DNA of 48,843 bases from assembly GCA_032718475.1 (NCBI GenBank), contig JAUCBJ010006878.1, forward strand, positions 1 through 48,843, read 5' to 3'. A program made the position numbers and the translations under genes. Positions 2,992 through 42,367 of this stretch are shown piece by piece. Below the pieces are notes generated by a model. That model worked only from the letters and a program-made list of their open reading frames with translations. It did no database searches and was not told the DNA's origin. The stretch is from Nemertoderma westbladi (Eukaryota; Animalia; Xenacoelomorpha). Each line of letters opens with the position of its first letter. Within the stretch, counting starts at the first letter, position 1.

Positions 2992-3540
2992 TGTTAGCTT
3001 ATCCAATTCCGCTAACATGAACCCACAAAGTAAGCCGTTGAGCAATATTGGGAGCACGAGGTTGATTACCAATCAACCTCGTGTCAGCCCAGTAAACGGG
3101 GACAATAGGCCCCAAAGGAGACACACACAATAAGGGTCAGGGGCCAAACCCCTAACAGAGAGAGAACAACAGGGGCAACGGGAAACACACCAGGGAAGGT
3201 GAAAGGGCGAGAAGTGGGATATTAGCCAATGGGGGGACAGCATCGACTAGGTACAGTAATATGGCCAACTGTGCAGTACATATATTACCTGTTGGTGCTT
3301 CCCTATTCAGTTTAGTTTACTCAGTCAGATCAGTAGGGTGGAACGGGGACTTCTGTCACCGTCCGCTACCGCCATCATACTTATCTACCGGTAACCGTGT
3401 CATACTATACTGTGCTATATCAGACTATTATACCTTTATACATATTACCGAACATCAGAACTCTTTTACCTTTCACACACGGCGGGGACGCGTGGATAGA
3501 AAACCCAACGGATAAACCGGGATCCGTAGATCCCGTCACA
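2992..3540 (+). repeat. 5' LTR of element A
   Basis: TGTTAGC...GTCACA; appears identical to 36465-37013 by eye; contains a 13-bp hairpin at 3055-3083 and CCAAT at ~3226. Confidence 0.95.
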
Positions 3541-3549
3541 GTGACAGAA
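3541..3549 (+). promoter_or_regulatory. PBS-position sequence GTGACAGAA, complementary to LTR 3351-3359
   Basis: Directly follows the LTR; no TGG; reverse complement TTCTGTCAC is at 3351-3359. Confidence 0.65.
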
Positions 3550-10305: not shown

Positions 10306-11038
10306 TTGCAGAACTACTGTAGAATATATGATGTGGTCTCCGTGCTGGTAAAGTGCCAGGTGAGCTGTAAGTTGTTGGAGTTGGTAGTAGCGGTGGCCTT
10401 CTTGGGAAGGTTGTCAGTTTGTCTCTTTCCAGCATATGTGAATTCTTCAGCATGGGATTCATGTAATACTGGTGCAGGTAGCTATACCTTGAATTACTTG
10501 TGGTTCCACATGTTGGGATTGTAGAAGTGGTGGAATTGACTCCTAATTGATTAAGATTTAGTCTGTCTTTATTGTTCTGTCTAGTAAAATTGTGCATTTC
10601 CTGTGATTTCTGAGAATTTGTTCTGCTATAAACATGTTCTGTTAATTCCCTGCGCCGTTCACCAAGGACTGGTAAGTTGTGCTTCATTGGATTAATAGTG
10701 TCGGAAGAATTTTGAGCAAATTTGTTTGTATCTTTAACTGAGTGCAATACTTCAATCTGTAAATTCTTCCATGGCCACATATTGTAATAGAGATAGGTTG
10801 CAACTTCCTCCTTTTGTACATCAATGTGAGCAGTACTTTCTGCCTTTTTAGTATCCTTTGCGATTAAGCAATTTGTAGGGTAGGTCCCTGTTTGTTTAAA
10901 GCATATATTTCTCAGTGTCTCTGCTGAGATATTTGGGGGAAGGCCCGAGATGATGATTGTTTCTTTGTCTTGGGAAGACTTCAGGGGTTTGTTGTACTTG
11001 AGCTTTCCTTCTAAGTTATTTGCAATTTTCTCCATCTT
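10262..11038 (-). CDS. C-terminal segment of LINE ORF1 (RRM-like), joins in frame to 28262-33771
   Basis: Removing element B and one ATCTT gives ...QFIEK-MEKIANN...; IIISGLPPNISAETL RRM-like stretch; overlaps the ORF2 start by 44 nt. Confidence 0.85.
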   Translation of the reverse strand, partial: KMEKIANNLEGKLKYNKPLKSSQDKETIIISGLPPNISAETLRNICFKQTGTYPTNCLIAKDTKKAESTAHIDVQKEEVATYLYYNMWPWKNLQIEVLHSVKDTNKFAQNSSDTINPMKHNLPVLGERRRELTEHVYSRTNSQKSQEMHNFTRQNNKDRLNLNQLGVNSTTSTIPTCGTTSNSRYSYLHQYYMNPMLKNSHMLERDKLTTFPRRPPLLPTPTTYSSPGTLPARRPHHIFYSSSANETRQLHEGRNYCF

Positions 11039-12266
11039 TGTTCGCGCTTTTGAAGACCTTTAGCAGTTTAACCTGCCAAAATTTATATGTCTTTTAGTTA
11101 ATTAACACACCTTTAGCATACGACAATATTTTATGCTAATAAACAAAACATTAGCCGAAGCCAGCCCATGCGCGATCATTCACCCGATGGATCTACACCC
11201 GGGAGGCTGAATTCGGATGCTTAGATTTATTATTGCAGTGTAAGGTTGCAGTGTAAGCCTACTGTATTATTCGATTGATCGCTAATATGTAATTTCTGAC
11301 AGATATTATTAACTTTCGGGAAATATTAACAGTTCCTTTAGGACGTGGCGCTCTATCTATTTAAACAGAGCTAGGACTTATACTAAACGCAACGATAAGG
11401 CTTATGATTAAAGTATAAGTCGCATTCTTTAGGAAATGCTTTGTTACCAGTCACATCACACTCACAATCATGCACACTATTCTGCCGACCGTCAGTATAT
11501 TTGATCACACATAAAGAGAACAGCAATTGACTCAGGTAGTGTCTACTAAATAACATTAGATTCAATACACACCACATTGATATAAATCGCAATTGTTATA
11601 TATAGCCCGCCTCTCTAACCTGTAGTGTATCAATAAAATTGGGAATTTTGGGTGATTTATCCGTATTCTCCAAAGAGCAATATTTCCATCAACAAATAGA
11701 TACAATTAATAACTGACGGTAAATAGCAGTACAAACAATATGATTAGTGCAGTTGAATTAAGTGAGGTAACACCGCCGGTAACAGTTATACTTTCTATAA
11801 TCTAAGCAGTTTTACTAGAGTTCTTAGAGCCGGTGTTTCTGGCTTAGACAGCAATAACAACAAAGTATCAAGTAAAAACAGTAAGACTGAACACTCTCCT
11901 TATGATCGGCCGAAAAGCTACACGTCGACAGGAAAAATCGCTCTGATTGGCTCAAGCCAAACAAAGAACCATGCATCCAATGGCTGTTTCCATGTCAGCA
12001 ACCAGCTGTTAGATGTCGTAATATGAATCATCACGGCTAAGCTGTGAAAGGTAGTTGGTGCATTGCAGGTTTTTTGCCTTACCATGTCCGCCAAAACACG
12101 TATATAGCAGAATGACTTTTATGTCCGTTAAAACACGTGTAACGGTACCTTGCGGGCGAGGGGAATATATATACAGTTAGAGAACCTTTTTAGAGTATTC
12201 CAGCGCCTGGGGGGAAACTGGATTGCGAAGCAAAGGGGCCAGTTATATCCCACAGAAGCTTTTACA
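11039..12266 (-). repeat. 3' LTR of element B
   Basis: Matches 27034-28261 with about 2 substitutions seen; AATAAA on the minus strand at ~11226-11231. Confidence 0.95.
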
Positions 12267-12274
12267 CCGCTCCC
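12267..12274 (-). promoter_or_regulatory. Polypurine tract of element B (GGGAGCGG)
   Basis: Purine-rich tract abutting the 3' LTR on the minus strand. Confidence 0.6.
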
Positions 12275-12911: not shown

Positions 12912-15900
12912 TTAGGTGACTTCCTCCCGGTGGTAGCGAGATAGAAAATGGGATTTTAATTTGTTTTTGAATTCTGTCGGTTTGTTATAACATTTTTTGA
13001 TAGGTAAAGGTAACATATTCCACATTTTCGTTAGTTGTACTATCATACTGTTGTGGCCATAGATATTGGTTGTTTTCGGCAGTCTTAGTTGAATAGTGCG
13101 TTTATTTAGATGGATATGTGTATTTGATATAAATGGTAATTCAAGGATTTTGTATGGTTCTAACAGGTGAAATAGGTATTTGTAATAATATATTAGCCCA
13201 AAATATTCCCGATATGCTGTTAGAATTGGAATTTTAGCTTTTGATCTTAGTTCAGTGCCGGTACAGTCCCTGGTTTTTTTGTTAAATATTGAGCGAAGTG
13301 CGAAGTTTTGCATCTTTTCTAGCTTATATAGTAGTTCTTTGTATCCGTATTTATTGTGTAGGGAAACCAGAAGTTGGCTACAGTAGTGATGGTGCGGTAG
13401 AACTATTGTTTTATATATGTTAATTTTGGTTTGTATCGGTAATTGTCCTTTAATTTTCCGTAAACATGATATACTTAGTGACATTTTTCGTACTACAGAG
13501 TCTATTTGTTCTTTCCAGGTCAGTTTGTTGTCTATATGTACTCCTAGGTATTTTACACTTTGTGATTGGTTAATATGAATGTCATGGGATAACGTAAGTT
13601 TAGAATCGTCAATATTGCTGCGGTCAGTTTTTGGGGATAATAGTATGAATTCAGTTTTTTCAGGATTTAATTTTAGTTTCTTCTTACCGAAAATGTCAGA
13701 TATTTTATTAATTGTTAGTGTTAGTTTGTCAGTTGCTTCAGTGGGATCGTGAGACGAAATATAGATTGCTGTGTCGTCTGCATATTGGACAGTATTGGCA
13801 GAGTCAGATATTAGTTCTGGTATTTCGTTTGTATATAGTGAGAATAAAAGCGGTCCAATAAGTGTTCCTTGTGGTACCCCCCGTTGCTCCTTCAGAAAAG
13901 ACGATAATTGTGACCCAACCCTAACCCTCTGGAATCTGTCAGTTAAATAACTTTTAATTAATTTGCAAGCTGTTGTGTGGAACCCCAAATTTGATAAGAC
14001 ATTTATGAGCTGTGAATGATCGAGAGAATTAAAGGCCTTACTAAGGTCGAGAAACGCTACTGCCACATATTTTTGTTTATCTAATTGTTCACGCCATCGT
14101 TCGGTCGCATACGTAACAGCGTCAATTGTAGAAAATTTCTTACGAAATCCGAACTGAAAAGCAGTGCGTAATTTGTGTTTGTAAAGATAGCATTCAATTT
14201 GGCTTACAAGTACCTTTTCTATTATTTTTGAAATTGGATGTGTGATGCTTAAAGGGCGATAGTTTTGTGGGTCATCATCGTCTCCCTTTTTAAATACGGG
14301 CGTTATGGTTGAGAGCTTTAATGTGTCTGGGAAAATGGAACGTGTAATACAGTCATTTATAATATGAGTTAGAGGTGATAAGATCATAGGGCGAATCTGT
14401 TTCAATATTCTTATAGGGATTTTAGAGTGGCCGCATGGTTTGTTTTCGTTCAAATTTTGTATAATTTTATCTAGGTCAAAAATATTAATAGAAGAAAAAC
14501 AAAAAGCGTTGTTGTTTGGAGAAATTTGAATTGTGTTTGGAATCGGTAGTGACTTACTTGTAATATTAAGATCTGAAAATTTACCAATATCAATATATAT
14601 TTCATTTAAAATGTTCGATATTTCTTTTTTATCAAATATACTTTTCCCACCATAGCTTATTTCCGAAACAGATTTACTATTTTTATTTTTATTTAAAACC
14701 TCATTTATCACCTTCCAACGTCCCTGAGTTGTGTTTTGAGTTAAGAATTTATTTTTTACGTATGCATTTTTTAAATTTTTGTTTAAATTATTGTACAAAT
14801 TTCGCGTTTTCTTGAAGGAATTAAAATCAGCAATATCTTTAGAAGAGCGCCAAATGTTTAATTTTTCATACTTTAATTTTCTTAAATTTCCGAGTTCTGT
14901 TGTGTGCCATTTCTGTGTGGCTCCTAAGTATTTTTGTGGCATTTTTAGTTTTCGTTTTAGAGGTGCATGTCTGTCAATAATTTTTTCGATTTCAGATTCA
15001 AAATAAGACAGCTTTTTATTTACATCAGATTCGTAATAAAGTGGGATCCAATTAATATTAGCAATTTCGTGACGAAATATATTTTGATTGAAATTTGAAA
15101 AGTCCCGGTATTCAATCCACTCATTTGTTTCATTGGCTGATTTTGGGATATTATGTGCAATATTAGTTAAGGTATATTCATGGTCAGAATAATGACAAAA
15201 AAATACTAAGCTTTCAATTACAGTAGAAGAAGGAATATTAGTTATAACTAGATCAATTAATGTGTTAGTACATTTTGTATATCTCGTTGGTTTGGTAGTA
15301 TTTAGTATACGTAGGTCGTGCGCAGTTGTCATACCTCGCAGTTTTGTTGTCTGGCTACTATTAGTGTTTAATAAATTGATGTTAAAGTCCCCTTGAATGA
15401 GAAAGTTACAGTTTGGTTCAAGTAGCATGGCATTGTCAATTTCTTGTTCAATATCATCAATAAAGTGTGGGTTGGCACGGGGTGGATTATATACTGTACA
15501 TACCAATATATTATCGATCTGAACCCATAAACTCTCTAGTTTATCATTGTCCTTAATGTCCTTGTTACGTATTTTCGCTTTATAGCCATCCGGAATGTAA
15601 ATTAGAACACCACCACCCCTCTTACGTTTACGGTCTAGACGAAAGTGTGTGAAACCTTTCATTTTTATGGACTCACAAGAGGTATTTCGCTTTAGCCAAG
15701 TTTCAGTTACTGACACAATAACATTTCGCGAACCCAACAAGACTTCTTTCAGCTCGTCGAAATTTTTGTTTAGACTTCTAGCATTTATATGAATAAATTT
15801 CAGTTTGTCTGTGTCTTTTGCAATATAGTCCTTAATGTCAGTAAATGAATTTTTTACTTTAGCATTTGTGGATGTAAAGTAGTAATGTTGTGAATTGTTA

Positions 15901-16994
15901 CTTGTGGTTGGATGTTTGCGACATTTACGTCCTGGACCTGGGTTAGGGTGTATGTTGCCAGAAATTTTTAGTAACAAGTTGATAGTAACGGCGAGAATGA
16001 TAGTTATATCAAGTACGAATGTGTGGTATATTTGTATGCAGTACTTAAGTGTCAAATATGTTAATATAACTAATTGTGTGATGCTTAATTTCCTATTGGC
16101 AATTAATTTCTTCGAATAGTTTAAGTGAGTAATATCTTTGTTATTTATAGTGTACATATATTGACAATTATGTGGTAGAATGACAGTTAAATATAAAAGT
16201 GAAACAAATAAGTGACAATGTGACTGTTTATTATTTAGTGTTGCTGCTATTTCTTTAGAATGCCGAAAAAAACAGTTAGTTGTGAGCTGTACAATTTGAT
16301 AAAACAAAAATAAGAGAGAATAGTGGTGGGTGAGCCACCACGGAGAGGAGGTCACACGAAAATGGAAGACCGAAACTACAAGGAAGATGCAACCCAATAA
16401 ATTTATGATATAACTCTTACGTAGATATGAATGAAATTTCCATTTGTTATTTTTTGAAAAGGGATTGGAATGTGAATATCTATGCACATGAGAAATATAT
16501 CGACCAACAGTAATAATAGAGGTAAATGTTGGATATAATAGGGTAAGTGCATAAAACACGGCGCATACTGTAAGTAGCATACAGTGATATATAATGAAAA
16601 ATTGTATGGATATAAGTTTTGCAATGATTTTGTACTTTGACAGTGCCAATATAGACAGTAAGCTAAAAGGGATAACCCAAATTAGAGGATTACATAGCAC
16701 TAAATCGGTTAAGGTTAAGAGTTTGACAGTGCAATAAAATGTGTATATCTTACTCCAACCAAACACCAATAATTCCAGTAAAATATCAATTGCACAGGCT
16801 AGACCTGAGTATTCATATTCATTTAGTGCTGAAAAATTTACCGCCGTAGTTGGGAGATCATTGCAAATATATACATAAGACAACTTACAATTTTTTAAAT
16901 ATTCATTGGTTGATGTGCAAGGTACAATTAAACATAGTAATATGAAAATAAACACAAATATAATATATTTATTTAAAATACAATCAATAGACAT
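12912..16994 (-). CDS. LINE ORF2: hydrophobic leader + 2A-like motif + APE + RT (1360 aa)
   Basis: LLLKISGNIHPNPGP; HINARSL, VTETW, YNPP, GDFN, SDH; NYRPLS, QFGFR, LDLSKAF, GVPQG, YADDT, YLG. Confidence 0.95.
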   Translation of the reverse strand: MSIDCILNKYIIFVFIFILLCLIVPCTSTNEYLKNCKLSYVYICNDLPTTAVNFSALNEYEYSGLACAIDILLELLVFGWSKIYTFYCTVKLLTLTDLVLCNPLIWVIPFSLLSILALSKYKIIAKLISIQFFIIYHCMLLTVCAVFYALTLLYPTFTSIITVGRYISHVHRYSHSNPFSKNNKWKFHSYLRKSYIINLLGCIFLVVSVFHFRVTSSPWWLTHHYSLLFLFYQIVQLTTNCFFRHSKEIAATLNNKQSHCHLFVSLLYLTVILPHNCQYMYTINNKDITHLNYSKKLIANRKLSITQLVILTYLTLKYCIQIYHTFVLDITIILAVTINLLLKISGNIHPNPGPGRKCRKHPTTSNNSQHYYFTSTNAKVKNSFTDIKDYIAKDTDKLKFIHINARSLNKNFDELKEVLLGSRNVIVSVTETWLKRNTSCESIKMKGFTHFRLDRKRKRGGGVLIYIPDGYKAKIRNKDIKDNDKLESLWVQIDNILVCTVYNPPRANPHFIDDIEQEIDNAMLLEPNCNFLIQGDFNINLLNTNSSQTTKLRGMTTAHDLRILNTTKPTRYTKCTNTLIDLVITNIPSSTVIESLVFFCHYSDHEYTLTNIAHNIPKSANETNEWIEYRDFSNFNQNIFRHEIANINWIPLYYESDVNKKLSYFESEIEKIIDRHAPLKRKLKMPQKYLGATQKWHTTELGNLRKLKYEKLNIWRSSKDIADFNSFKKTRNLYNNLNKNLKNAYVKNKFLTQNTTQGRWKVINEVLNKNKNSKSVSEISYGGKSIFDKKEISNILNEIYIDIGKFSDLNITSKSLPIPNTIQISPNNNAFCFSSINIFDLDKIIQNLNENKPCGHSKIPIRILKQIRPMILSPLTHIINDCITRSIFPDTLKLSTITPVFKKGDDDDPQNYRPLSITHPISKIIEKVLVSQIECYLYKHKLRTAFQFGFRKKFSTIDAVTYATERWREQLDKQKYVAVAFLDLSKAFNSLDHSQLINVLSNLGFHTTACKLIKSYLTDRFQRVRVGSQLSSFLKEQRGVPQGTLIGPLLFSLYTNEIPELISDSANTVQYADDTAIYISSHDPTEATDKLTLTINKISDIFGKKKLKLNPEKTEFILLSPKTDRSNIDDSKLTLSHDIHINQSQSVKYLGVHIDNKLTWKEQIDSVVRKMSLSISCLRKIKGQLPIQTKINIYKTIVLPHHHYCSQLLVSLHNKYGYKELLYKLEKMQNFALRSIFNKKTRDCTGTELRSKAKIPILTAYREYFGLIYYYKYLFHLLEPYKILELPFISNTHIHLNKRTIQLRLPKTTNIYGHNSMIVQLTKMWNMLPLPIKKCYNKPTEFKNKLKSHFLSRYHREEVT

Positions 16995-17093
16995 ATTTAT
17001 TATTATTTAACCTTTAAAATCATTAAAATTATATTCTGTATTTTTATTGAAGTAAATGTAGAATATAAATGTTAAAAAATATAGAGAATCACC

Positions 17094-19013
17094 TTAGTGC
17101 GATTTGGACTGCAGTGCATGTGACACCATACGTCCTATTATACCTGCAAGTTCCGTGGCGATATTATCTGGATTTTGTTGCGTTGGTCGGGGTGTGTTTC
17201 CATTGGATAATGGTGGCGGTAGCTGACTTGTCCGGGTTAGCGGTAGCCTACTCGGGTGGGTGTATGGATGATACTGAGATCGAGGGTTGTTAGAACCGTG
17301 AGATTGGAATGTTGGGCGATGTCCAGAAGGTCCGTGGTTGATAGAAGCCTGTCGCATTCGGCCACCAGCTGATGGGCCATTTACAAAGGATGATGGTCTC
17401 GACATCCAGCTGTCAGCAAGACGCCTGTTTGCTGACGCGCTGTCAGCCAAGGGCCCCGATCGCTGGCTACCACGTACAACGTCGGAGAACTTCCTCGGGT
17501 CGGGATTTTGTAGAGATGTTTTAAGTAACAGGGTTAATATTTGTTGACCCTGTCGAGATAAATGAACCCCATCCTTAGCGAACGCTTGTTTTAGGATAGT
17601 CTTATCAACCGTGAAGGAACTCCATGTGGAGATTGTAATTATATCGCATTCCGAACAGATTTCACGCAGAATGGTGTTCCTCTGCATAATGGAGGCCAAC
17701 TGGGCCGGATTTGTTACAGGAGGTATATCACATATATACATGTTCGTGGGAGAAAACACCGAACGACAGATCTTAATAGTTTCATATACATTTTCCCGGA
17801 AAGTTGCTAATGGAACCTTTAAATCATTGGTGCCAATTCCTAGCACGATATTTTTTAGCACTTCTCTGCTATATCTAGAAATTAAATTTGGTGCATCGGT
17901 GAAAGAAAGACCAGGGTACGAGTGTATTTGCGTTGTACGATCAATGTTTCGTGGGTCTACATAGTTAAATATAGATGAACCGATAATCAAAGTAGATGTG
18001 AAATTATTTCGACGCCTTGGTATGAATCCGACATTATATTCATTCGAAATCAGGCAGTCCTCGTTTGTATCGGAAACTTTCGAACCCAGCAGTGTAGGAT
18101 GATCGTTTGTATCGTTAGTATCGGAAACTTTCGAACCCAGTAGTGTAGGACGTTCAGTAGGCTTACCTGTAATCGGTATGTCATAATTTTCCGCTAGGTT
18201 TACCAAAACTACATCGACAGAATTATCGCCCACAACTTTGCTCTGGGTTGGAAGTCGTTGAGAAACGTTTGAGTCGTTCGTGGTGTAATTAATTACGTCT
18301 TGGGGATCGGATTCCTTGGCTGCGAATCTCGTTTCGTTGTCACTGCTATCGACTGATATCTGTACCGGTACCGGTATGTCTATATCAGATTGTTCTATAT
18401 TTACGTGGCTATAACCAGGATGGTCCTTCATTATACAGACTGTATTATTAGCAGCTAATATCGGATCAAGGTACTGGTCATCTATTTGTTGTTTACATTG
18501 TAGTATTAATTCTCTATCTTTTTCACGTTCCACTTTTAGCTGTTTGACTTGGTGTTCAAGATCTTTTAGTCTCTCTAAAATGGAACTGAGAGAAATTTTA
18601 TCATGGGTCATTGAGTTATCGCTGATAGGCCTACTGTTACTATTGTTGCTACCGGTAGCAGATTCCGGGTGGGTAATAATACTGTTATAACCATCCTCTG
18701 TATCCATGTCAACGCCAACACCAATATGGCAACGTGTAGTATGGATAACTGGATCTTCAGTTAAGTCTGACAAAGACCTAGTGTAATCATATAACGTAGA
18801 ATTATGTGTATCGGTCAGAAACGAACCTACATCAAGTGTGTCTACATTGGCTGCATCAGGCTGTAGGCCTAAAGGTCGTTCTAATTCTATGTTATTGTCC
18901 TCGATCCTCCTTAGTAATACTGTTCGACCGCCCGTGGTTGACAGGTTGTGTTGTATTAACAATTCTTTAAGCTCCGTTATACTCAGCTTCCGGATATCTC
19001 CACCGATATTCAT
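17094..19013 (-). CDS. LINE ORF1: SAP-like domain, coiled coil, SGNH/GDSL esterase (639 aa)
   Basis: LSITELKELLIQHNLSTTGGRTVLLRRI; LIIGSSI, SYPG, GIGTND, DGVHL. Confidence 0.85.
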   Translation of the reverse strand: MNIGGDIRKLSITELKELLIQHNLSTTGGRTVLLRRIEDNNIELERPLGLQPDAANVDTLDVGSFLTDTHNSTLYDYTRSLSDLTEDPVIHTTRCHIGVGVDMDTEDGYNSIITHPESATGSNNSNSRPISDNSMTHDKISLSSILERLKDLEHQVKQLKVEREKDRELILQCKQQIDDQYLDPILAANNTVCIMKDHPGYSHVNIEQSDIDIPVPVQISVDSSDNETRFAAKESDPQDVINYTTNDSNVSQRLPTQSKVVGDNSVDVVLVNLAENYDIPITGKPTERPTLLGSKVSDTNDTNDHPTLLGSKVSDTNEDCLISNEYNVGFIPRRRNNFTSTLIIGSSIFNYVDPRNIDRTTQIHSYPGLSFTDAPNLISRYSREVLKNIVLGIGTNDLKVPLATFRENVYETIKICRSVFSPTNMYICDIPPVTNPAQLASIMQRNTILREICSECDIITISTWSSFTVDKTILKQAFAKDGVHLSRQGQQILTLLLKTSLQNPDPRKFSDVVRGSQRSGPLADSASANRRLADSWMSRPSSFVNGPSAGGRMRQASINHGPSGHRPTFQSHGSNNPRSQYHPYTHPSRLPLTRTSQLPPPLSNGNTPRPTQQNPDNIATELAGIIGRMVSHALQSKSH

Positions 19014-19130
19014 TTATAACTATGGAAAATATATGCAAGTTCAGTTTATATATCAGTATTTCAATTTTTTTTCAGAGTACCGGTAGCATGCAGTCAGTCC
19101 GTACCGTTATTCAGTACAGCAGTATTATGA

Positions 19131-20931: not shown

Positions 20932-21221
20932 TTTATTCCAGAGCATATCTGGGGACTTAGGATCCTTAATTCTATAAAATAGTCCTTCTAAGAATATCGG
21001 TAAATACTGCGATATCTTAATTGACTAGAAATTTTAAAGGATCGGGATTTTACAGATTTTAATAAATATTAAATTAATATTTAGGATGGGCACCGATTTA
21101 TTCCAGAACTTGTCTGGGGACATTAACCACTGATTCTAGAATTTGTCTTTCAAGTATATCGGTGGGTGCCACGATATCTTAATCGACTAGAATTACAGAA
21201 GGTCAAAAGTTTAACAGATTT
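20932..21221. repeat. Diverged direct duplication, ~165-bp period
   Basis: TTTATTCCAGA..TCTGGGGAC..TATCGGT..GATATCTTAA..GACTAGAA..ACAGATTT occurs twice. Confidence 0.7.
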
Positions 21222-21738
21222 ATTTGCGATTTACGCTACTGTTAGAGGGACATCACGCTACTATATGTATTATTTGTTATAAGGTAGAAGAGCAATATCG
21301 CACGAAGCAATGTCAGTGTGAAGAGGCAAGTCGTTTCCAAGGTCTACCCAGAGCTTGGTTTAGCCGAGACACGAGGATCTGAACTTTGCATTCCTAATAC
21401 TCTGCCTACCAATAATACTTAAATATAGTAGTGGCTTTATTGTACTTTAAGAAGTACTGACATGTCATCTTACTATAGTCTCGCATTTATAATATAATAC
21501 GGACAGTAAGGAAAGAGAAAAATAATTATTTCTTGCCGTCGCACTAAATATATTATAAGTAATTAAGTACGTAATAAACGCTAATATATTGCACTAATCT
21601 ACTAAATATTCTAAAATAACATTCCACTAAATAAAATTAAATAAAACGATTATAATAAAATTACATAATAATACATACATAAATATAAAATAAAAACAAA
21701 TATAAAATGATATAGCCACACGCCCACTCCACATGCTA

Positions 21739-24700
21739 TCACGTTCTGGAGTCCCTAGATATTTGTCGGATTAGGGAAGTAGTCGTAGGAAGAGTATCTT
21801 GCCTTCCATAGTTTTCAGACAGTTTTCGGTCTCTTTCCAGTAAACATAAACGACTAGCTGGGCGATTGAGTTGTTGTGTTACTTTCTCCGCTCCCTTGGC
21901 CTGTCTAATCTCAGCCGTGGTAAGATGAGGAGGCCATTCTTCTTCTTCTTTACTTAAGGAGTCGGATCCACCTAACCAGCCTGGAGTATCTATCAGTTCT
22001 TGAGGAGTTGCTCCTCTGGAAGCGATATCGGCTGGATTAATCGTCCCAAGGCAATGTCTCCATTGATCTACATTGGAGTTAATATCGTCATTATCTGAGG
22101 AGTATGGTGTTCCCTCAGTGGGTTCGTCCACTTCACTGCTCTCCACTTCCAAACCATTTATCTGGTATAGTCTTTCTGATGGTAGTCTCTCTTCGAGAGT
22201 TCTGCGGGAAGGACCAGTAAAGTACCAACCTACTCTAGTTCTTACCGCATAGGTTTGTAGTGGCTGCGGTTGAGCAGGTCGTTTTTCCAATGTCTCGAGC
22301 GCCTCGTGCGCGTTTTGGCCGATAAGTATTTGCACTCCAAGATAATCCGTCTGGAATCGAGGTATTTTAAGTTGTTGGATGCTCTTGTCCTCGTTCCAGT
22401 TATAAGGCTCTACTCGGGTATTAGCGAAGTTCTTTATAGCTACCATTTTTACTGACCTTATACTTTGTTCTCCTAATTTATCCTGTGGGGTGGACAACGC
22501 ACCTACATAGTAATCTGCCGTTATGGTAGATTTCCAAACCTGTATGACTCCTGACATATTTAACTTAGTTCGGAATTTGGGTTGTCCAGCAAAGATGTCT
22601 TCGGCTAGTTCTTGATCGATGAATGTTCCTGTACTGCCGGAGTCAAGGAGGGCATTCACTATGTAACTTTTGTTAGGACCCTGAACTCTTACCTGCACTA
22701 CAGGAAATTCTCTGATTCCTACGTTGGAAGTTGAAGGTTTCCAGGATGGTTGTCTGTCAAAGTTAGTTGGGGAGAACTCATTGTCGGTGTCCTTTTCGTA
22801 AGTAAGTGCTCGATACACTGCGGTATTTATTAGGTAACAGGATTCGTTGGCGTCGGAGAATTCGTCTGTATAGAATCCTTCCCACTCAGAACTTTGGTCA
22901 GTGTCGTTCACATCACTGAATTGGACATGTGATTTGGGCTCACTTACCTGACTCGGGCTGTTTCGTTCGAATTCACTTTGTAACAAGATGTGATGTTTCG
23001 CACCGCACTTTGCACACTTTATGTCGGAGTAACAGGTTCGCCGCTGGTGTCCGCGTCTGAGGCAATTATAGCATAACCGCTTGTCCCACACAACTGTACG
23101 TCTGTCTACAAGGGATTTCTTTAGGAATTCCGCACACGCACTCAAACGGTGGGGCCCGTCGCACAGCGCACAGTTTGGTTTAATGTTACTCACTTTACCT
23201 TGGGTGACGTTATGCACTCTAGTTCTTTCTTCGGGCTTTCTTCCGTGTACTCCGTTAGGAAACTGAAGAGGAGTCTTATCAACCTTTTCTCTCCTGTCAT
23301 GGGTTCGAGCCTTAGATTTACTTACGTTCTTTGAGGTCTTGTTAACATAGTAAAATTTCTCGGTGTCTTCCTCGCTGTCTTCTTCTTGAGAAGCTTGGCT
23401 TTCGCCGTCATCAGTATAACACACCGGTGTTACTCTTCTCCTAGAAACGGGTTTCTCACTTACCTTATTTTCCGGTGTTTTCTCTCTGGATTGCTTTAGG
23501 AGTTGTAATTTCACTTCGCCATCCAAGAATGACATGAGATCAGCCATGGTAGGGTCTCGTTGTTGTTGTTCCATAGTATATAACACCTTCTTGTCCCAGC
23601 GTGTACCTACTCCACCCTTGGGCAAAGTAGATGCTAAGGCTCCTACAACCATAGAATTCTGGTATTCATGAGACTTACCTAACCAATCTAGTTGTCTACA
23701 GATCTCCTGAATCTCATCGGAAAACTCTATAATCCCGCTGCTAAGAAACTTTCGGGGGGCCATTAATTTCGCATATAAATACCTAGCTATGTTATTCCTA
23801 TTACCATACCTGATGTTTAGTGTATCCCAAACTTGTCTTAATCCATCTGGATGTCCAATAAATTTTAACGCCATTGACTTGGGAGGTCCTTCCAAGCACT
23901 CGATGAGGAATCTAAGTTTCTCTCCGTTGGATAACACAGAGTTCTGTATGTTATCTTTATAATATTCATTAAAAGGTAACCATTTCATCTCATCTCCATT
24001 GAATTTGACGATCTCTCCCACTTTGACCGCTTGGCGGGCTTCTGTTCTAGCCATCTGACGCGTAAAGCTTTCTTGGGCCATCGTGTTATTTAATATCGAA
24101 TTATCGTTATACAAATTTCTCGGATCATTATCAGGTCTATAGGGAATATCATTAATAACAGGTCTATAATCACCCTTAATAGGGTTTGCTATAGGAGTTT
24201 CAACTTCACTAGCAGTATAGATGCGTGTAGGCTCCACACCTTGCGCATGTAATACTTCAGACCTAACAGGTTGGCACAATGTTACAGGGGGTATTGGTAT
24301 GCCCTTTTGTATATTGACTAATTTGTCGCATTCTAGCGCGATACTTTGCTGCACTTCCTGCAACTCTGCTCTACTTTCCCTCACTGTTCCCTTAAGTTGG
24401 TGGACAGTCTCCTCCATTTCCCTGACCTGCTGAGAGGAGCACAAACAGTGTTCCCTCAGCTGCTCGAGCAGGAGACCCATCTCCCGTCGTCCCTCAGCTA
24501 CCCACTCAACCGCCGAAGCGGGAGTCGCCAACGTAGTAGCGGGCGAGCGAGAGACGACGGGCGATAAATTCTTGATACCTCGCTCGGCGTCCAGGACGGG
24601 TTCGGACTCGGGAACAGTCCTACTGGGCACAGGTAGTCTTCTGGTTTGTTTCTTCAAGTAATCTTGTTTCGCCTGAAGGTTTTCCAGCTCTAGTTGGATA

Positions 24701-24846
24701 GTCGCTTCAGACGTCTTCCGTTCTGCTTCTGCCACTGCCTCTGCCGCTTTTCTGTCTTCTCTCCTTTCAAGACACTGTCCAAGTCGACGACTCATTCTAA
24801 AACCCTCTAAGAGACTATCTGACAATGTTTGTGTTGTGTCAGACAT
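21739..24846 (-). CDS. BEL/Pao gag-protease with RNase H and integrase C-terminal remnants (1035 aa)
   Basis: KFNGD..W..F and EKLRFL (DUF1759-like); knuckles CALCDGPH, CYNCLRRGH, CAKCGAKHH; ALLDSGS; WRHC..NPADIASRG; RPASRLCLLE; no RT. Confidence 0.92.
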   Translation of the reverse strand: MSDTTQTLSDSLLEGFRMSRRLGQCLERREDRKAAEAVAEAERKTSEATIQLELENLQAKQDYLKKQTRRLPVPSRTVPESEPVLDAERGIKNLSPVVSRSPATTLATPASAVEWVAEGRREMGLLLEQLREHCLCSSQQVREMEETVHQLKGTVRESRAELQEVQQSIALECDKLVNIQKGIPIPPVTLCQPVRSEVLHAQGVEPTRIYTASEVETPIANPIKGDYRPVINDIPYRPDNDPRNLYNDNSILNNTMAQESFTRQMARTEARQAVKVGEIVKFNGDEMKWLPFNEYYKDNIQNSVLSNGEKLRFLIECLEGPPKSMALKFIGHPDGLRQVWDTLNIRYGNRNNIARYLYAKLMAPRKFLSSGIIEFSDEIQEICRQLDWLGKSHEYQNSMVVGALASTLPKGGVGTRWDKKVLYTMEQQQRDPTMADLMSFLDGEVKLQLLKQSREKTPENKVSEKPVSRRRVTPVCYTDDGESQASQEEDSEEDTEKFYYVNKTSKNVSKSKARTHDRREKVDKTPLQFPNGVHGRKPEERTRVHNVTQGKVSNIKPNCALCDGPHRLSACAEFLKKSLVDRRTVVWDKRLCYNCLRRGHQRRTCYSDIKCAKCGAKHHILLQSEFERNSPSQVSEPKSHVQFSDVNDTDQSSEWEGFYTDEFSDANESCYLINTAVYRALTYEKDTDNEFSPTNFDRQPSWKPSTSNVGIREFPVVQVRVQGPNKSYIVNALLDSGSTGTFIDQELAEDIFAGQPKFRTKLNMSGVIQVWKSTITADYYVGALSTPQDKLGEQSIRSVKMVAIKNFANTRVEPYNWNEDKSIQQLKIPRFQTDYLGVQILIGQNAHEALETLEKRPAQPQPLQTYAVRTRVGWYFTGPSRRTLEERLPSERLYQINGLEVESSEVDEPTEGTPYSSDNDDINSNVDQWRHCLGTINPADIASRGATPQELIDTPGWLGGSDSLSKEEEEWPPHLTTAEIRQAKGAEKVTQQLNRPASRLCLLERDRKLSENYGRQDTLPTTTSLIRQISRDSRT

Positions 24847-24979
24847 TTCGCTTTATACAGTTGGATGCCTACTGCTATATATACAGTTAAAGCAAGTCTA
24901 GTAATTCAGTATCACTGCTAGCCTAATAATTAATTACCGATACTGCTACTCAATGTAGCGTGATATATATATATAATAT

Positions 24980-25232
24980 ATTAGAATACCGGTATGCTTA
25001 TAGTATATATAAGTATTATTACAGACTAGATTTGTCACAGAGTACCGGTATATAAATTTAGCACAAATATATATAAATATATAATAGGCCTATAGTGAAT
25101 ACCGGTATACAGCTTACACTTATAGTATATATAAGTATAATTATGAACTAGAATTAATTACAGAGTACCGGTATGATTTCAGCTCAAATTTATAGAAATA
25201 AATATAATAAGCCTATGGTAAATACTGGTATG
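24980..25232. repeat. ~115-bp tandem duplication in the element B leader
   Basis: ATACCGGTAT..TATAGTATATATAAGTA..ACAGAGTACCGGTAT..GCCTAT twice. Confidence 0.7.
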
Positions 25233-26199
25233 TCAATTATTTTAGAATAATTGAATTTCTGAATATTTTAGGGTTACTTGGTTACTTTAACTTACTTTAT
25301 TACCGTTATTTAAGCAGTAGTCCAACTGATATTGAGACCTAGTTGTTGTATGGCAGGCCTACTATTTATAAATCGTTTGAGTTGATTTATAATATTTATA
25401 TACCCGTTTAAAATGGGTTTTTGTCAATATTTGAAATAAATGTTATTATTTCTGGGGGAGTCACTACACAGAAGCTGAACGCCTCTCAGTGAAGTGCTAT
25501 TTATTTGACACTAAAACTGATAATTCTAATTTACCTAAGTTACTTAATACTACAAATTACTTACGATACGGGTGAGATTAATTCTCTAATTAAACACAAC
25601 TAAATATTACGTACGAAATTTTTAGGGTAATTTTACAGGAAGTCTACAAACCAGTCCAACAAAGGGTTAGATTTCTGGTTATTACAAAGGACAGGGTACT
25701 ACGGTATTTAAATAATAAGTAGTAGTAAATATATTGTACTGTCCAGATAGGAAAATACCACCGCCTGACGACCTATAACCGTATCGCTATAGGTACTACG
25801 TTATGTATCACGGATTGTTCCTACCCAGAAGCTAATAGAGCTAACGAATGTGCCTATCAACCACTTTACAACACAAATATACTGCCTACACTAATTACTT
25901 CGGAAAGCACTGTACACTAAACCCTAAATTAGGTACAAGTACCGGTATAACAAATAATCAGTAGTTAAATATACTTGAACAGTTAAAAGAACCACGGCAT
26001 CTGCTGGAGTGACCGAAGCACAAAATCTCCAGTCTTTACCTACGCCGAGCAGCCCTGATGTAGTACCGGGGTTAGTTTAACTATAACGGTATGTATAACA
26101 AGCACAATTACTGTAGGAATAAACTTGGGGACATGAATGTTGCGAATAATCGCATAAACTCTGAATAATAAATATTACGCTACCCGTACAGAATACTCA

Positions 26200-26737
26200 A
26201 ACAAATACAAACCAAACGCTGGCAGACTACTATTAAGCCTAAACAAACTACTGTATGTGCAGGTTCTGAAACTGTTAGTTAGTATGCGTTCTAACACGGT
26301 AGTACGACTTACTCTTTAAGAGGGGATTGACCTTACCGCTTATGGCTGCCCCAACTTACTAACGGCACTTTATCAGACAAACTCTACACACGCAGCAATC
26401 CCTTCAGGCCTAAGAATAGCTAGACAACAATCCAGCCTACAAAATATCTGAGTAATAACTATCACGGTACCTGAACAGACCACACAAACAAACACAGGCT
26501 AAAACACTGGCAGACTACGATCAAGCCTAAATTAACTACAGTATATGCAGATTCTGAAACTGTTAGTTAGTATGCGTTCTAACACGGTAGTACGACTTAT
26601 TCTTTAAGAGGGGATTGACCTTCAGCATATGGCTGCCCCAACTTACTAACTGCACTTTATCAGACCAACTCTACACACACCGCAATCTCTCCAAACTCAA
26701 CAACAGTCAGACAGCAGCTCAGCCTACAATTATCTGA
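26200..26737. repeat. ~290-bp tandem duplication in the element B leader
   Basis: CTGGCAGACTAC...TTCTGAAACTGTTAGTTAGTATGCGTTCTAACACGGTAGTACGACTTA...CAGCCTACAA twice. Confidence 0.85.
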
Positions 26738-27022
26738 ACAATCTGAGCAGGGTCACACGCCTTCTGCTCAATATTAGCCTACTAGTAAATAAAACCGACA
26801 GAAATAAGTAAACTATACAAAAGAATGAGGGGTGATCAATCCCTATTCCCCTGGCAGCCTACAATATACAATAGATCACAATCGAAATAATACTAAATGT
26901 ACTTGTACAGCAGTACCGGTACCGGTGATGACAGTTAGGCCTACTGACCTACAGAAGTACCGGTTCAGTTTTACCGGTCACTACGGTATTTTGCAACCTT
27001 ATTGCTCACTGCAATAAGATCG

Positions 27023-27033
27023 ATAACTGTTAC
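27023..27033 (-). promoter_or_regulatory. PBS-position sequence GTAACAGTTAT, complementary to LTR 27774-27784
   Basis: Directly follows the 5' LTR on the minus strand; no TGG; 11/11 complementary to an internal LTR site. Confidence 0.7.
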
Positions 27034-28261
27034 TGTTCGCGCTTTTGAAGACCTTTAGCAGTTTAACCTGCCAAAATTTATATGTCTTTTAGTTAATTAA
27101 CACACCTTTAGCATACGACAATATTTTATGCTAATAAACAAAACATTAGCCGAAGCCAGCCCATGCGCGATCATTCACCCGATGGATCTACACCCGGGAG
27201 GCTGAATTCGGATGCTTAGATTTATTATTGCAGTGTAAGGTTGCAGTGTAAGCCTACTGTATTATTCGATTGATCGCTAATATGTAATTTCTGACAGATA
27301 TTATTAACTTTCGGGAAATATTAACAGTTCCTTTAGGACGTGGCGCTCTATCTATTTAAACAGAGCTAGGACTTATACTAAACGCAACGATAAGGCTTAT
27401 GATTAAAGTATAAGTCGCATTCTTTAGGAAATGCTTTGTTACCAGTCACATCACACTCACAATCATGCACACTATTCTGCCGACCGTCAGTATATTTGAT
27501 CACACATAAAGAGAACAGCAATTGACTCAGGTAGTGTCTACTAAATAACATTAGATTCAATACACACCACATTGATATAAATCGCAATTGTTATATATAG
27601 CCCGCCTCTCTAACCTGTAGTGTATCAAGAAAATTGGGAATTTTGGGTGATTTATCCGTATTCTCCAAAGAGCAATATTTCCATCAACAAATAGATACAA
27701 TTAATAACTGACGGTAAATAGCAGTACAAACAATATGATTAGTGCAGTTGAATTAAGTGAGGTAACACCGCCGGTAACAGTTATACTTTCTATAATCTAA
27801 GCAGTTTTACTAGAGTTCTTAGAGCCGGTGTTTCTGGCTTAGACAGCAATAACAACAAAGTATCAAGTAAAAACAGTAAGACTGAACACTCTCCTTATGA
27901 TCGGCCGAAAAGCTACACGTCGACAGGAAAAATCGCTCTGATTGGCTCAAGCCAAACAAAGAACCATGCATCCAATGGCTGTTTCCATGTCAGCAACCAG
28001 CTGTTAGATGTCGTAATATGAATCATCACGGCTAAGCTGTGAAAGGTAGTTGGTGCATTGCAGGTTTTTTGCCTTACCATGTCCGCCAAAACACGTATAT
28101 AGCAGAATGACTTTTATGTCCGTTAAAACACCTGTAACGGTACCTTGCGGGCGAGGGGAATATATATACAGTTAGAGAACCTTTTTAGAGTATTCCAGCG
28201 CCTGGGGGGAAACTGGATTGCGAAGCAAAGGGGCCAGTTATATCCCACAGAAGCTTTTACA
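27034..28261 (-). repeat. 5' LTR of element B
   Basis: Direct repeat of 11039-12266. Confidence 0.95.
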
Positions 28262-31200
28262 ATCTTCTCTATGAACTGGGACTGTTTCTGAATGAGAGTA
28301 GCAATTAGAGATTCTTGGTCCAGACACTCAAATCTATTTCGACATTTTGTTTCTTGGTATGTTTTTGGGATACCTGGGCTGGGTGGTCCAGTTTTCTTTG
28401 GGACTTGCCATGTATGTTTATCATCTATTATGGCTTCAACTGATACTGGTTTTTCTATTGCAGGGGACTGTTGTCGGTTCATATCCTTATGTCGGTTCAT
28501 ATTCATATCACAATTTGGACTACACTCGTATATGTTTTGGTTCTGAACTAGTTTTTCTTTCGCCGATTTGAAAATGTTTGGCTTTGGTGACTCGGTTTTA
28601 TGCTTAAGTTCCAATTTTTCTACTTGTTCTGATATTAGTATACCTGGGACTTTGGCTTTGTTAGTATGATGATTTATCTGTTCATGTCGTTTTTTATTTC
28701 CACTTTTTGTCTGCTTCTTGTTTCCTGCTGTTGATTTTCTGGGAACTTCAGATGTAGGATTAGTATTACTATGAATATGTAGAGTTTCTTGAGAGTTTCG
28801 ATCTTTGTCTTTTTCATCGTTTTTCTCTAGGGTGTCCAGCTTCGTTTGTAGTTTTTGATGTTCATGTTGCATTGTTTTCATTTGGAGTTGTAGATCAGTG
28901 ACAAGCTCTAATAATCGCAGGATCCCGAACGAATCAACTGACCCAACGTTCACCCGTTTACGGAAAGCATTTGTTAGGGACTTACTTTCATATACGATTG
29001 CAAATTCTGCGACGTCAGAAGCCAATTCGTCAATACTTCTACGTTTGATCATTGTTATGGATATTCCTGATTGTTTACCAACAATCTTTTCATTTACATC
29101 GTCGAACAACATCTTCTGCAAATAAGTAAGTCTTGCAGTTCTAAGTTCTGTTAATTTTTTGGCAAATGTATCTCTGGGGTTTTGTATCATCCTATTCTGT
29201 TTGATAAATTCAATAAATTGTTCTGATGTTTGAAAATCAACACTGCTTTCCATATCACTCTCTTTGTGGTTGTCTTTGTATTGATTTGTTGTTAGTTCAT
29301 ATGTTTTAACTGTAACATATTCCGTTGATACTAACTTAATACTATCAAGACATTCCGAAATCCATTTCCTAGCCAGATTACTGTGCTTGTGGATCTGGGG
29401 TAGTTGCCTTTCATGTTGTGCTATTGCAAGTGAAGCTAGACATACATAGATTCCACAATCGTATGTATTGTCCTGCTTTTCGAAGGTGGGGGGGCCTGTG
29501 ATCAACTTCCATTTATTCTGCTTGTAGGTTTTAAATTCACTCATTGGTGCACAGTTGTCAATTAGGGTTAGTAGATGTGATATTCTCTTTGTGGTTTCCG
29601 TTGGTTTATTGTTAGAGTGTTGGAGTGAATCAATAGAATACACTTCCTTGTTGTTTGTGTCAGCGACATGAAGAATAAAATGTGAGTTTCTTAATTCGGG
29701 GAAGAACATTAGCGTAGGTCGTGGCAATACTTGTCTGTTGGATCTTGACCTACATAGTTTCCCGAGATATTTTGGAGCTATATACTTAATTGTGCTATAT
29801 TTATCATAATTATCACGTTGCATCTTCTCAGTACACATGCTGGAAATGGCAGCGATTGTGTGGTCATGGTGTGATTCTATCAGGTACATAAAGCTGTCTA
29901 CTATGCAGTTTGTAATCCAAGTTTCTGGTTTCAGGTATGTATATCTTTCTTGATTTGTTGTCACAATTGGCCCTGGTCTTTCCTTTGGATTGAGATTATA
30001 TAGGTAATCTATTATTTCTCCAATGGTCTGTTCCTCAGTTTTTTGTGAGCAATCAGGATATACTTCTATGCCAACAAACTCAACTTCGTTCTCATCGCTA
30101 CAGGTATTGGTCTTAACACTTGCTTCTTCTGAATCGTTTGTTATAGTTGTATTCCTTGGGTTGAAGAACTTGGTAATCAGTTGTTGGTATGTTGATTTGA
30201 TTTCTTTATCTATGTGACTGTTAGTGTTGGGGACAGTACCTTGACTCCGAACCGTGTCGGGAGAAACTGGAGTAAATCCTCCCTTGCAACCGGGTTTATG
30301 TGTCGGACTCGAAACTGCTTCAGGAGGAGAAAATGGAGTAGATCCTCCCTCGGGTCCGGTTTTGTGTGGCTGACTCCCAACCACCTCAGGAGAAACTCGA
30401 GTAGATTCTCCCTTGAAATCCGGTTTATGTGGCACACTCCGAATCCAAACTGCCTCTGTACCTGGAGAAACTGGAGTAGATTCCCCCTTGGAACTGTGTT
30501 TATGTGGCGGAGTATTACTGGTTTCAGATGAAAATATTTCATTATTGATCACTGAATTACCAATATTAATTCCACAAGGGGTCGAAAAATTACCAACATT
30601 ACTGGTTTCGGAGGCAAATATTCCATTGTTGGTCACTGAACTACCGATATTATTATTACTGGCGCCAGGGGTTGAATAAATGCCAGCATTACTAGCTGTA
30701 GACACCAAAAAAGCATCGTTGGACCCTGGGTTATCAAAAAGACCAGTTCCAGGGACAACGACATTACTGGGTTCAGGCCCAAAAGTATCACCATTGGTCA
30801 CAGTAAAGTCGGCTCCAGGGACCGAACAGTTAGCAGCATTACTGGATGCAGACATGAAATATTTGTTATTGGTCTCTAAATTATAAATGTTATTTGCACA
30901 ATGGGTCGAAAATTTACCGACATTACTGGTCTTGGAGGCAAATATTTCATTATTGGTCATTAAATTACCAATATTATTATTACTGGCACTGTCACCAGGG
31001 GTTGAAAAAATGCCAGCAGCATTACTAGCTGTGGACACCACAAAAGCATCGTTGGACCCTGGGTTACCAAAAGGACCAGTTCCAGGGACAACGACATTAC
31101 TGGGTTCAGGCCCAAAAATATCACCATTGGTCGCAGTAAAGTCGGCTCCAGGGACCGAACAGTTAGCAGCATTACTGGATGCAGACATGAAATATTTGTT

Positions 31201-33771
31201 ATTGGTCTCTAAATTACAAATGTTATTTGCACAATGGGTCGAAAAATTACAGACATTACTGGTTTCAGAGGCAAATATTTCATTATTGGTCATTAAATTA
31301 CCAATATTATTATTACTGGCACTGTCGCCAGGGGTTGAATAAATGCCAGCAGCATTACTAGCTGTGGACACCACAAAAGCATCGTTGGACCCTGGGTTAT
31401 CAAAAAGACCAGTTCCAGGGGCAACGACATTACTGGGTTCAGGCCCAAAAGTATCACCATTGGTCACAGTAAAGTCGGCTCCAGGGACCGAACAGTTAGC
31501 AGCATTACTGGATGCAGACATGAAATATTTGTTATTGGTCTCTAAATTACAAATGTTATTTGCACAATGGGTCGAAAAATTACAGACATTACTGGTTTCA
31601 GAGGCAAATATTTCATTATTGGTCATTAAATTACCAATATTATTATTACTGGCACTGTCGCCAGGGGTTGAATAAATGCCAGCAGCATTATTAGCTGTGG
31701 ACACCACAAAAGCATCGTTGGACCCTGGGTTATCAAAAAGACCAGTTCCAGGGACAACGACATTACTGGGTTCAGGCCCAAAAGTATCACCATTGGTCAC
31801 AGTAGAGTCGGCTCCAGGGACTGAACAGTTAGCAGCATTACTGGATGCAGACATGAAATATTTGTTATTGGTCTCTAAATTATAAATGTTATTTGCACAA
31901 TGGGTCGAAAAATTACAGACATTACTGGTTTCAGAGGCAAATATTTCATTATTGGTCATTAAATTACCAATATTATTATTACTGGCACTGTCGCCAGGGG
32001 TTGAATAAATGCCAGCAGCATTATTAGAGTTAGCAGCATTACTGGATGCAGACATAAAATATTTGTTATTGGTCTCTAAATTACAAATATTATTATTACT
32101 AGCGCCTGGGGTTGATGACGGGCGCACTGTCGGACTGTTACATACACAATCAAAAATTGCACTTGTACTATGCTCCTCTAGGGAAGATACATTAAAAGAC
32201 ATGCACCCGGTGGCGTTATTACTTTGTGAGCCTTCATCAACCGAATTGTTATACATGCTATTATGCTCATTAGTAGATACTATATAATTAATACTATTAT
32301 TATCAGTCATGACGGTATTAACACAATGATCATTAAAGGGATTGCTAACGGCATGATTGGTTAGAGATCTATGTTTCCATGTACCGTTCTCCTGGAGGTC
32401 TTCAACCAGAAAATGCGCCCTGGATGAGTGCAGGACACTAGGATTGACCTCGGAATTATTTGGATTCGCGGTTGGTACAGTCAATGTTGAACCGAGAGAA
32501 ACATTCCGGGGTTTAGACGAATTCGAAGAGTTGTCGGCACGGGTGATGGTCGACCACACTGAGGACAACGAATCGAGAGAATCCTTCCAGGGTTTAGTCG
32601 AAGTCGACGAGTTGTTGGCACCGGTATTGGTGGGTCGTACAGAGAAAGACGAACCAACGGAAACCTTCAGGGGTTTGGATGAAGTCGACGAGTTGTCGGT
32701 ACTAGTATTAGCGGGTCGTACAGAGGACGACGAACCGGGAGTAACCTTCCGGGGTTTATTCGAAGTCAACGAGTTGTCGGCACCGCTACCGCTATTGGAG
32801 GGTCGTACAGAGGACGACGAACCAAGAGAAACCTTTCGGGGTTTAGTCAAAGTCGACGAGATGTCGGTATCGGCATTGGTAGCTCGTACAGAGGACGACG
32901 AACCGGGAGTAACCTTCCGGGGTTTAGTCGAAGTCGACGAGTTGTTGGCACCGGTATTGGTGGGTCGTACAGAGGACGACGAACCAGCGGAAACCTTCAG
33001 GGGTTTGGATGAAGTCGACGAGTTGTCGGTACTAGTATTAGCGGGTCGTACAGAGGACGACGAACCGGGAGTAACCTTCCGGGGTTTATTCGAAGTCGAC
33101 GAGTTGTCGGCACCGCTACCGCTATTGGAGGGTCGTACAGAGGACGACGAACCAAGAGAAACCTTCCGGGGTTTAGTCAAAGTCGACGAGATGTCGGTAT
33201 CGGCATTGGTAGTTCGTACAGAGGACGACGAACCGAGGGAAACCTTCTGGGGTTTAGTCGAAGTCAACGAGTTGTCGGTACCGGTATTGATGGGTCGTAC
33301 AACAGAGGCCGATGAACCGAGAGAAACCTTCCAGGGTTTAGTTGAAGTCGACGAGTTGTCGGTACCAGTATTGGTGGGTCGTACAGAGAACAACGAATCA
33401 AGAGAAACCTTCCGGGGTTTAGTCGAGGTCGAGGAGTTGTTGTCGGTAGGCCTATTCGCATTTCGTGCAGAACTGAGAGAAAGACTTCTCCTTCCGGATA
33501 CCGTAAGTTTTCCTGTGTCTGACAGCTTTAATTCTAGAGATGGATTGGTGGCTAGAATTTCTGTCATGTTCGGTTCACCAGTATTATTTGCAGTTATTGT
33601 AGTTTCTCCTTTATTGCAGATTTCGGGATGATCCATTCGTTGGTGGCTATCGTTTTCCAATACATCCTTTTGCCCACCATTCGCAAAAGCTCCCGATTTA
33701 GGGTCCGTTAGTTTTATGCGTTTACGTGCGGCAGCTTGGCGACCCCTTGGTTTGGGAACAGAACCCAGCAT
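28262..33771 (-). CDS. N-terminal segment of giant LINE ORF1: repeats, Ulp1/C48 protease, coiled coil
   Basis: LKPETWITNCIVDSF, NSHFIL, IDSL, QDNTYDCGIYV; NRFECL; the last ~46 codons of the ORF-track call are read-through into the LTR. Confidence 0.85.
30580..32110 (-). repeat. 333-bp (111-aa) coding tandem repeat, ~4 copies
   Basis: Unit markers at 30680, 31010, 31343, 31676, 32009. Confidence 0.9.
32480..33450 (-). repeat. ~81-bp (27-aa) Ser/Thr-rich coding repeat with a 330-bp higher-order unit
   Basis: VRPxNxxxDNSSTSxKPxKVSxGSSSS about 12 times; 32621 matches 32951 and 32791 matches 33121. Confidence 0.9.
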
Positions 33772-33919
33772 GCTGTTTATCTCAGTATCTGCAGATCTGC
33801 CTGTCAGTACAGCAGTACAGGAGTTACAGTGTCGGCCGTGTTCCTCTGTGGAATTCCCAGAGTGTGGGTGTATTCATTGTATTCATTGTGTTCACACCGT
33901 GGCAGGGACAGAAAGAAAA

Positions 33920-42270: not shown

Positions 42271-42367
42271 AGATTAAATATAAAACATAATTACACAACA
42301 ACAGTAGGCCTATTTGTTTGATTAGATATGCTTTGGTCGAAATTATATTCAACTAATAGAATCAGGT

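Follow-up and report, generated by a model that had tools for sequence, protein, structure and literature searches.

How does reverse transcription begin in a BEL/Pao retrotransposon whose 5' long terminal repeat (LTR) is not followed by a tRNA-type primer-binding site (PBS)? BEL/Pao is one of five reverse-transcribing families, and the ICTV describes its replication as poorly understood and tRNA-primed, with an 18-nt PBS complementary to host tRNA-Arg or tRNA-Gly (PMC8742986). The question is raised by an element, here called B, in a 48,843-nt contig of Nemertoderma westbladi (JAUCBJ010006878.1) that was analysed over its full length and is referred to below as the window. A sequence-only reading of this DNA had proposed a self-priming BEL/Pao lineage in which the RNA starts at position 27784 and serves as primer with its first 11 nt, as in fission-yeast Tf1. 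We find that the tRNA-independent, self-priming part of this proposal stands, with covariation in 22 families of relatives, and that the start site and the use of the first 11 nt probably do not. In our reading, B is an RT- and integrase-deleted BEL/Pao element that is likely primed by an internal 11-nt stretch of its own RNA and not by a tRNA, to which we assign a probability of about 0.6.

All features of B lie on the minus strand. The 5' LTR runs without a spacer into GTAACAGTTAT (27023..27033), just as the sequence-only reading had it, and this PBS is not of the tRNA-CCA type: TGG is absent from the 133 nt following the LTR, there is thus no 18-nt site for the 3' end of tRNA-Arg or tRNA-Gly, and ARAGORN finds no tRNA in the window. 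The exact 11-nt complement, the predicted self-primer with the 3' end ...AC, was likewise correctly located at 27774..27784 in the 5' LTR and 11779..11789 in the 3' LTR; it occurs once per LTR, at LTR nt 478, and nowhere else in the window, and the match is exactly 11 nt, with no further extension. Its surroundings are also as first described, downstream of two CCAAT boxes (27941..27976; one reversed at 27976, one at 27945) and upstream of the single AATAAA poly(A) signal of the LTR (27221..27226), which is placed as strand transfer requires. As in the Tf1/sushi group, the PBS of about 11 nt thus has its complement in the element's own R region. The probability of such a complement by chance is about 1e-3, given that the 11-mer is present in 19 of 20,000 Markov-simulated LTRs (48 of 20,000 when the PBS is allowed to start 0-3 nt later) and that 30 of 46,346 other 11-mers of the window have a complement in the B LTR.

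The protein and ends of B bear out its assignment to BEL/Pao. The two LTRs (5', 27034..28261; 3', 11039..12266) are 1,228 bp each, begin and end TG...CA, differ by 2 mismatches over 1,228 bp and are flanked by a 5-bp target-site duplication, AAGAT (28262..28266 and 11034..11038), with a purine-rich tract (12267..12274) 5' of the 3' LTR. A single frame of 1,037 codons (21739..24852) encodes a Gag with DUF1759 and three CCHC knuckles, followed by an aspartic protease (LLDSG), an RNase H tail (NPAD..SRG) and the polyprotein's C-terminal BEL/Pao motif. B thus resembles the Belpaoviridae of the ICTV in its DUF1759 Gag, three CCHC knuckles, protease, Pao-type RNase H tail, TG...CA LTRs and polypurine tract, and differs from them, as do its relatives described below, in having no TGG PBS; unlike them, B also lacks RT and integrase. 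Nor does it fall with the Ty3/gypsy chromoviruses that include the Tf1/sushi group, its protein being BEL/Pao.

Of the RT-RNase H-integrase region only the RNase H tail is left. In-frame deletion has removed RT, integrase and the greater part of RNase H, a point that the earlier reading had not remarked, and the RNase H tail and C-terminal motif directly adjoin the protease. The frame (24852-21739) stays open over two large deletions, one from RT through most of RNase H and the other of integrase, which suggests selection on a Gag-protease-only product. Because RT and integrase are deleted B is non-autonomous, and it would be a young derivative that needs the enzymes of a partner. The frame is preceded by a 2.2-kb 5' leader (27022-24853) with a 288-bp duplication (26160-26737) and followed by a long 3' region (21738-19100) with short frames carrying Cys/His motifs at 19131-19721. 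The contig-only run X1 returns at least 652 contigs over 19000-28500, many of them B copies 80-99% identical, and at least 57 over 26960-27960, with a depth of only about 5 at the LTR site; among the X1 contigs listed, one differs at the PBS-distal end (27022-27024). Neither a search for close relatives of the B protein in viral and metagenome contigs nor a search of viral contigs with the BEL alignment found any.

The window contains a second BEL/Pao-like element, A (2992-37013, plus strand), in which RT was searched for and none detected. Its 549-bp 5' LTR (2992..3540) is identical to the 3' LTR (36465-37013), the target-site duplication is ATATA, Gag-like frames lie at 3602-6842, and BEL-type knuckles at 33702-34598 match the clade profile at E=1.5e-7. 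Its PBS (3541..3549) starts GT and has no TGG, and a contiguous 9-nt complement lies in the LTR at 3351..3359 (11 pairs with a 1-nt bulge), accompanied by an upstream helix; the chance of such a complement is 21 in 20,000. A CCAAT box, a TATA-like motif (3281) and an initiator TCAGTT (3307) lie about 40 nt 5' of the complement, and from these promoter motifs transcription of A is predicted to start about 40 nt upstream of it, near 3309. Nesting in the window is four levels deep (A > LINE > B > LINE). The outer LINE (33873-7150, minus strand) is split at 28261-11039 by B, which sits in its Ulp1-protease ORF; ORF1 comprises 1,916 aa and a 265-aa continuation past B, with tandem repeats and a Ulp1/C48 SUMO-protease domain (E=6.6e-5), and the second ORF (10413-7150) is an endonuclease-RT. 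The inner LINE (12912..19013, minus strand) lies within B and has an ORF1 with SAP and GDSL-esterase domains and an endonuclease-RT ORF2 of 1,364 aa whose hydrophobic N-terminal ~350 aa precede the endonuclease. Elsewhere, the window holds a near-perfect hairpin (38664-38910; 121-nt arms, 98% complementary, 5-nt loop) inside a longer inverted repeat, and a tandem array of about 12 copies with a 52-bp period (42334-43011).

Relatives of B were drawn from 131 loci, made up of 32 host-derived contigs of genome bins, 20 stretches of those bins and 79 metagenome contigs, the last retrieved by an RT query that favours the clade of P0001, the best match of B. Many prokaryote genome bins among the first 52 loci contain animal BEL/Pao elements, with at most 15 matches per bin, which indicates host contamination; two loci (L005 and L032) lie inside a Wolbachia-labelled chromosome. 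A blind test placed the 3' end of each LTR from nothing but the shared 5'/3' repeat, an end that could be defined in 40 of the 131 loci, the other 91 being left out of the count; splice donors were unconstrained, any GT being accepted. With the clade delimited by RT at least 45% identical to P0001, a cut-off chosen after the data were seen, a complement of at least 10 nt to the element's own PBS is found in 15 of 16 clade loci (14 families) versus 19 of 640 random internal probes. Only one of the remaining 24 BEL/Pao loci scores (L013), a spurious match with a mis-set repeat end, and TGG occurs within the first 10 nt in 21 of these 24.

Inspection of single loci qualifies these counts in both directions. 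The blind match of L078 used a wrong LTR end, and the corrected end gives a 12-nt contiguous match; in L043 the PBS complement is 10/11, with one mismatch. Two clade members with a non-TGG PBS, L006 (678-2700) and L008 (3239-4161), yielded no convincing complement in those stretches; the first 9 nt of the L006 PBS are the same as those of B and its LTR start is similar, and its contig contains Ns. Two further clade members, L044 and L088, have TGG near the LTR end. A boundary-free scan for junctions was noisy (30 loci with at least 11 nt versus 13 in a reverse-only null) and was used only to find candidates.

In most relatives the complement is formed only across a GT-AG intron of the LTR. This is seen, for example, in L007, L009 and L002, whose non-TGG PBS has a non-contiguous complement in the LTR that is joined by removing the intron, and the donor is GTRAG in 10 of 15 spliced blind matches. 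In the contig of L074 the 5' end is precisely spliced and the 3' LTR has the 117-nt intron; the spliced end could be RNA-derived or could stem from an intron-less DNA copy joined on in assembly. An intron-less complement is found in B, element A, L060 and L078, and the sister families L060, without the intron, and L061, with it, both retain the match. B shares with the clade a non-TGG PBS that starts GT, lies 0-4 nt from the LTR end and has a complement in its own LTR; its complement is contiguous where that of most relatives is split, and an intron-split primer sought in the B LTR gives a best spliced match of 6 nt.

The sequence-only reading had named covariation among related BEL families as a sign of such a lineage, and this is what we find. 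Among 22 families, from which the near-duplicates L009 and L046 and B itself were excluded, there are 19 distinct PBS 10-mers, each family matching its own LTR, and only 12 of 462 cross-family PBS/LTR pairs match over at least 10 nt. A curated set of 24 positive relatives and B (25 cases), which gauges covariation and not frequency, shows how constant the geometry is: the match is exactly 11 nt in 18 of 25, the primer 3' end is ...AC in 19, the PBS starts 0-4 nt past the CA of the LTR in 24, and in 21 the primer end is followed by a poly(A) signal ahead of the LTR end (2 not computable).

Trees and profiles bear on whether B belongs to this group. In a quick RT-RNase H tree the self-complementary elements fall on one side of a branch with SH-aLRT 99 and all 14 TGG elements on the other; a gag-PR tree places B on a long branch that joins a TGG element (L005). 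Profile HMMs score B at 167-187 bits for the clade versus 157 bits, and B has at its protease end the motif [YF]A[VIT][RK]T..GW, which is shared by 24 of 49 proteins of the clade and by 0 of 50 others. B may thus belong to the splice-primer BEL/Pao clade, a membership that is not proven: the position, length and AC end of its PBS match agree with the clade, and the profile scores are mildly in favour. Clade proteins are found in abalone and sea urchin; the accessible text of one survey describes the Sailor (Sinbad/Sparrow/Surcouf) and Suzu clades as dominating or occurring in such hosts (PMC6238403).

The relatives also indicate where the RNA begins. Fourteen nucleotides 5' of the 11-mer pair with sequence 3' of the PBS, forming a second helix whose mean gain of -7.4 kcal/mol is reached by 0 of 2,000 exchanges of flanks among families (-4.6±0.5 kcal/mol); the same flank-swap test gives no signal of a covarying helix on the 3' side of the primer. 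Only 1 of the 25 cases has a TATA at -25 to -33 relative to the primer start. The idea of a tiny first exon with transcription starting at the primer was rejected for the relatives on the grounds of this helix and the missing TATA at -30; in most of them, moreover, the complement spans a splice junction, for which an upstream exon is required. In B itself, an initiator-like TCAGTC (27880..27885) lies about 60 and about 90 nt downstream of the two CCAAT boxes, and applying the CCAAT-to-start spacing rule places the predicted start at about 27883, some 100 nt upstream of 27784. The Tf1-style detail of the earlier reading, an RNA start at 27784 with the first 11 nt as primer, is therefore probably wrong, given the upstream helix in relatives and the promoter motifs.

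Folding models suggest how the primer of B might be exposed. In the predicted fold of unspliced B RNA the primer:PBS duplex has a probability of 0-0.04 and the primer is mostly tied up elsewhere, with a partial partner of its 3' half at 27437..27445 as the predicted competitor. A putative downstream LTR intron (27378..27614), proposed from motifs and folding, would remove this competitor, and deleting 27614-27378 lifts the predicted primer:PBS pairing to 0.74-0.92. We regard such an intron as a lead only, as any deletion of the partner gives the same rise in the model. X1 contigs show deletions in the area of the partner (27445-27437).

Taken together, we consider it somewhat better than an even chance that there is a large marine-animal clade of BEL/Pao elements that dispense with tRNA and in which the spliceosome builds the primer from intron-split LTR sequence; only cap-proximally spliced RNA would be copyable, the intron would be inherited from the 3' LTR, and B would descend from such elements by intron loss, having perhaps come under splice control again by way of a downstream intron that takes out an anti-primer. 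The RNA start would lie 5' of the primer by some tens of nucleotides up to about 200 nt (near 27883 in B), and in intron-bearing families splicing of the cap-proximal intron would create the primer. The primer would then pair with the PBS and, by analogy with Tf1, be cut by RNase H just 3' of ...AC, with RNase H supplied to B in trans by an autonomous partner. Strong-stop DNA would be copied only back to this cut and transferred by means of the sequence that separates the cut from the poly(A) site, so that the intron would be inherited from the unspliced 3' copy; were the 3' copy also spliced, the product would carry a ready-made, intron-less primer, as in B. The poly(A) signal between primer and LTR end in most computable cases is consistent with this transfer.

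A strictly Tf1-type mechanism in B, with transcription starting at 27784 and the first 11 nt as primer, is the alternative closest to this scheme, and we judge it unlikely. In its favour, the match in B has exactly the 11-nt length known from Tf1, and B lacks a significant upstream helix (-2.6 kcal/mol, equalled by 1,451 of 2,000 shuffles), which leaves room for a start at 27784 in B; in the folding model, the duplex costs 2.2 instead of 6.2 kcal/mol to form when the RNA starts there. However, 27784 is 161 and 192 nt downstream of the CCAAT boxes and has neither a TATA at -30 nor a TCAGT initiator, the primer is probably internal in relatives and in element A, and a TATA at -25 to -33 is seen once in the 25 cases. 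A different possibility, which we hold to be quite improbable, is priming in trans, in which short transcripts of the LTR alone, started, spliced and polyadenylated within one LTR (solo LTRs included), would be packaged, trimmed and used as a private tRNA. The poly(A) signal that soon follows the primer in most families means that such short RNAs could be made, and the R region of the genomic RNA would stay intact, but the scheme has to assume an extra RNA species and a trimming step, and the cis model would account for intron inheritance and loss with fewer assumptions.

The duplex might also be structural or regulatory (packaging, dimerisation or splicing-dependent gating), with another primer such as a tRNA fragment starting synthesis. 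The evidence comes from sequence, and TGG lies near the LTR end in L044 and L088, which gives this reading some room; against it, the 19 different PBS 10-mers in 22 families each match only their own LTR, and 24 of 25 cases have the PBS within 0-4 nt of the LTR end, where synthesis must begin, which makes it very improbable. Scarcely credible, finally, is coincidence, for example a near-palindromic Myb-like motif that happens to be present twice. The 11-mer does include a TAACTG Myb-like motif, of which there are seven in the LTR, and the placement of B in the clade is not firm, but the chance of the match is about 1e-3, its position, length and ...AC end are the same as in relatives, and element A independently shows a complement, for which the chance is 21 in 20,000. 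Priming by an internal stretch of the element's own RNA is the preferred reading.

Self-priming with about 11 nt of the element's own RNA and cleavage by RNase H is established for Tf1/Tf2 of Schizosaccharomyces pombe and the Tf1/sushi/Tcn1 group of Ty3/gypsy elements, according to the accessible text of PMC7175516 and PMC5341516. Like these, B has a PBS that would pair with about 11 nt of its own RNA and not with a tRNA; unlike Tf1, which is Ty3/gypsy and uses the first 11 nt of its RNA, B is BEL/Pao, and its primer is probably internal and in most relatives spliced. Self-priming has also been predicted from sequence complementarity for the TAR, Houba and Osr-1 elements of plants, which are Ty1/copia; an intron-split primer such as that of the BEL/Pao relatives is absent from their description in the accessible portion of PMC6317226. 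In the literature searched, within which Repbase Reports, subscription papers and supplements did not fall, we found no description of self- or splice-priming in BEL/Pao: a word search of the accessible portions of PMC554778, PMC3118150, PMC6238403 and PMC8556966 found no relevant discussion of PBS or primer, and such priming is not described in those of PMC3601003, PMC8220671 and PMC3286476.

In the BEL class, Cer7 of C. elegans is said to encode a tRNA-like primer in a tRNA-like repeat outside the LTR; it would share with the present elements an element-encoded primer but not an 11-nt primer from the LTR or a splice junction.

The PBS and complement of B are a real feature, and B would be an intron-less, non-autonomous case of self-priming in a superfamily described as tRNA-primed. 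The prediction is precise and directly testable at the primer end, the splice junction and the strong-stop end. If it is true, a further self-priming lineage exists in a different superfamily, and a major BEL/Pao clade primes itself with a spliced primer, so that the ICTV description would be corrected. It would also account for the failure of tRNA-based annotation to find a PBS in these elements, which may escape silencing by tRNA fragments at the PBS, and retrotransposition in this clade would be tied to the control of host splicing.
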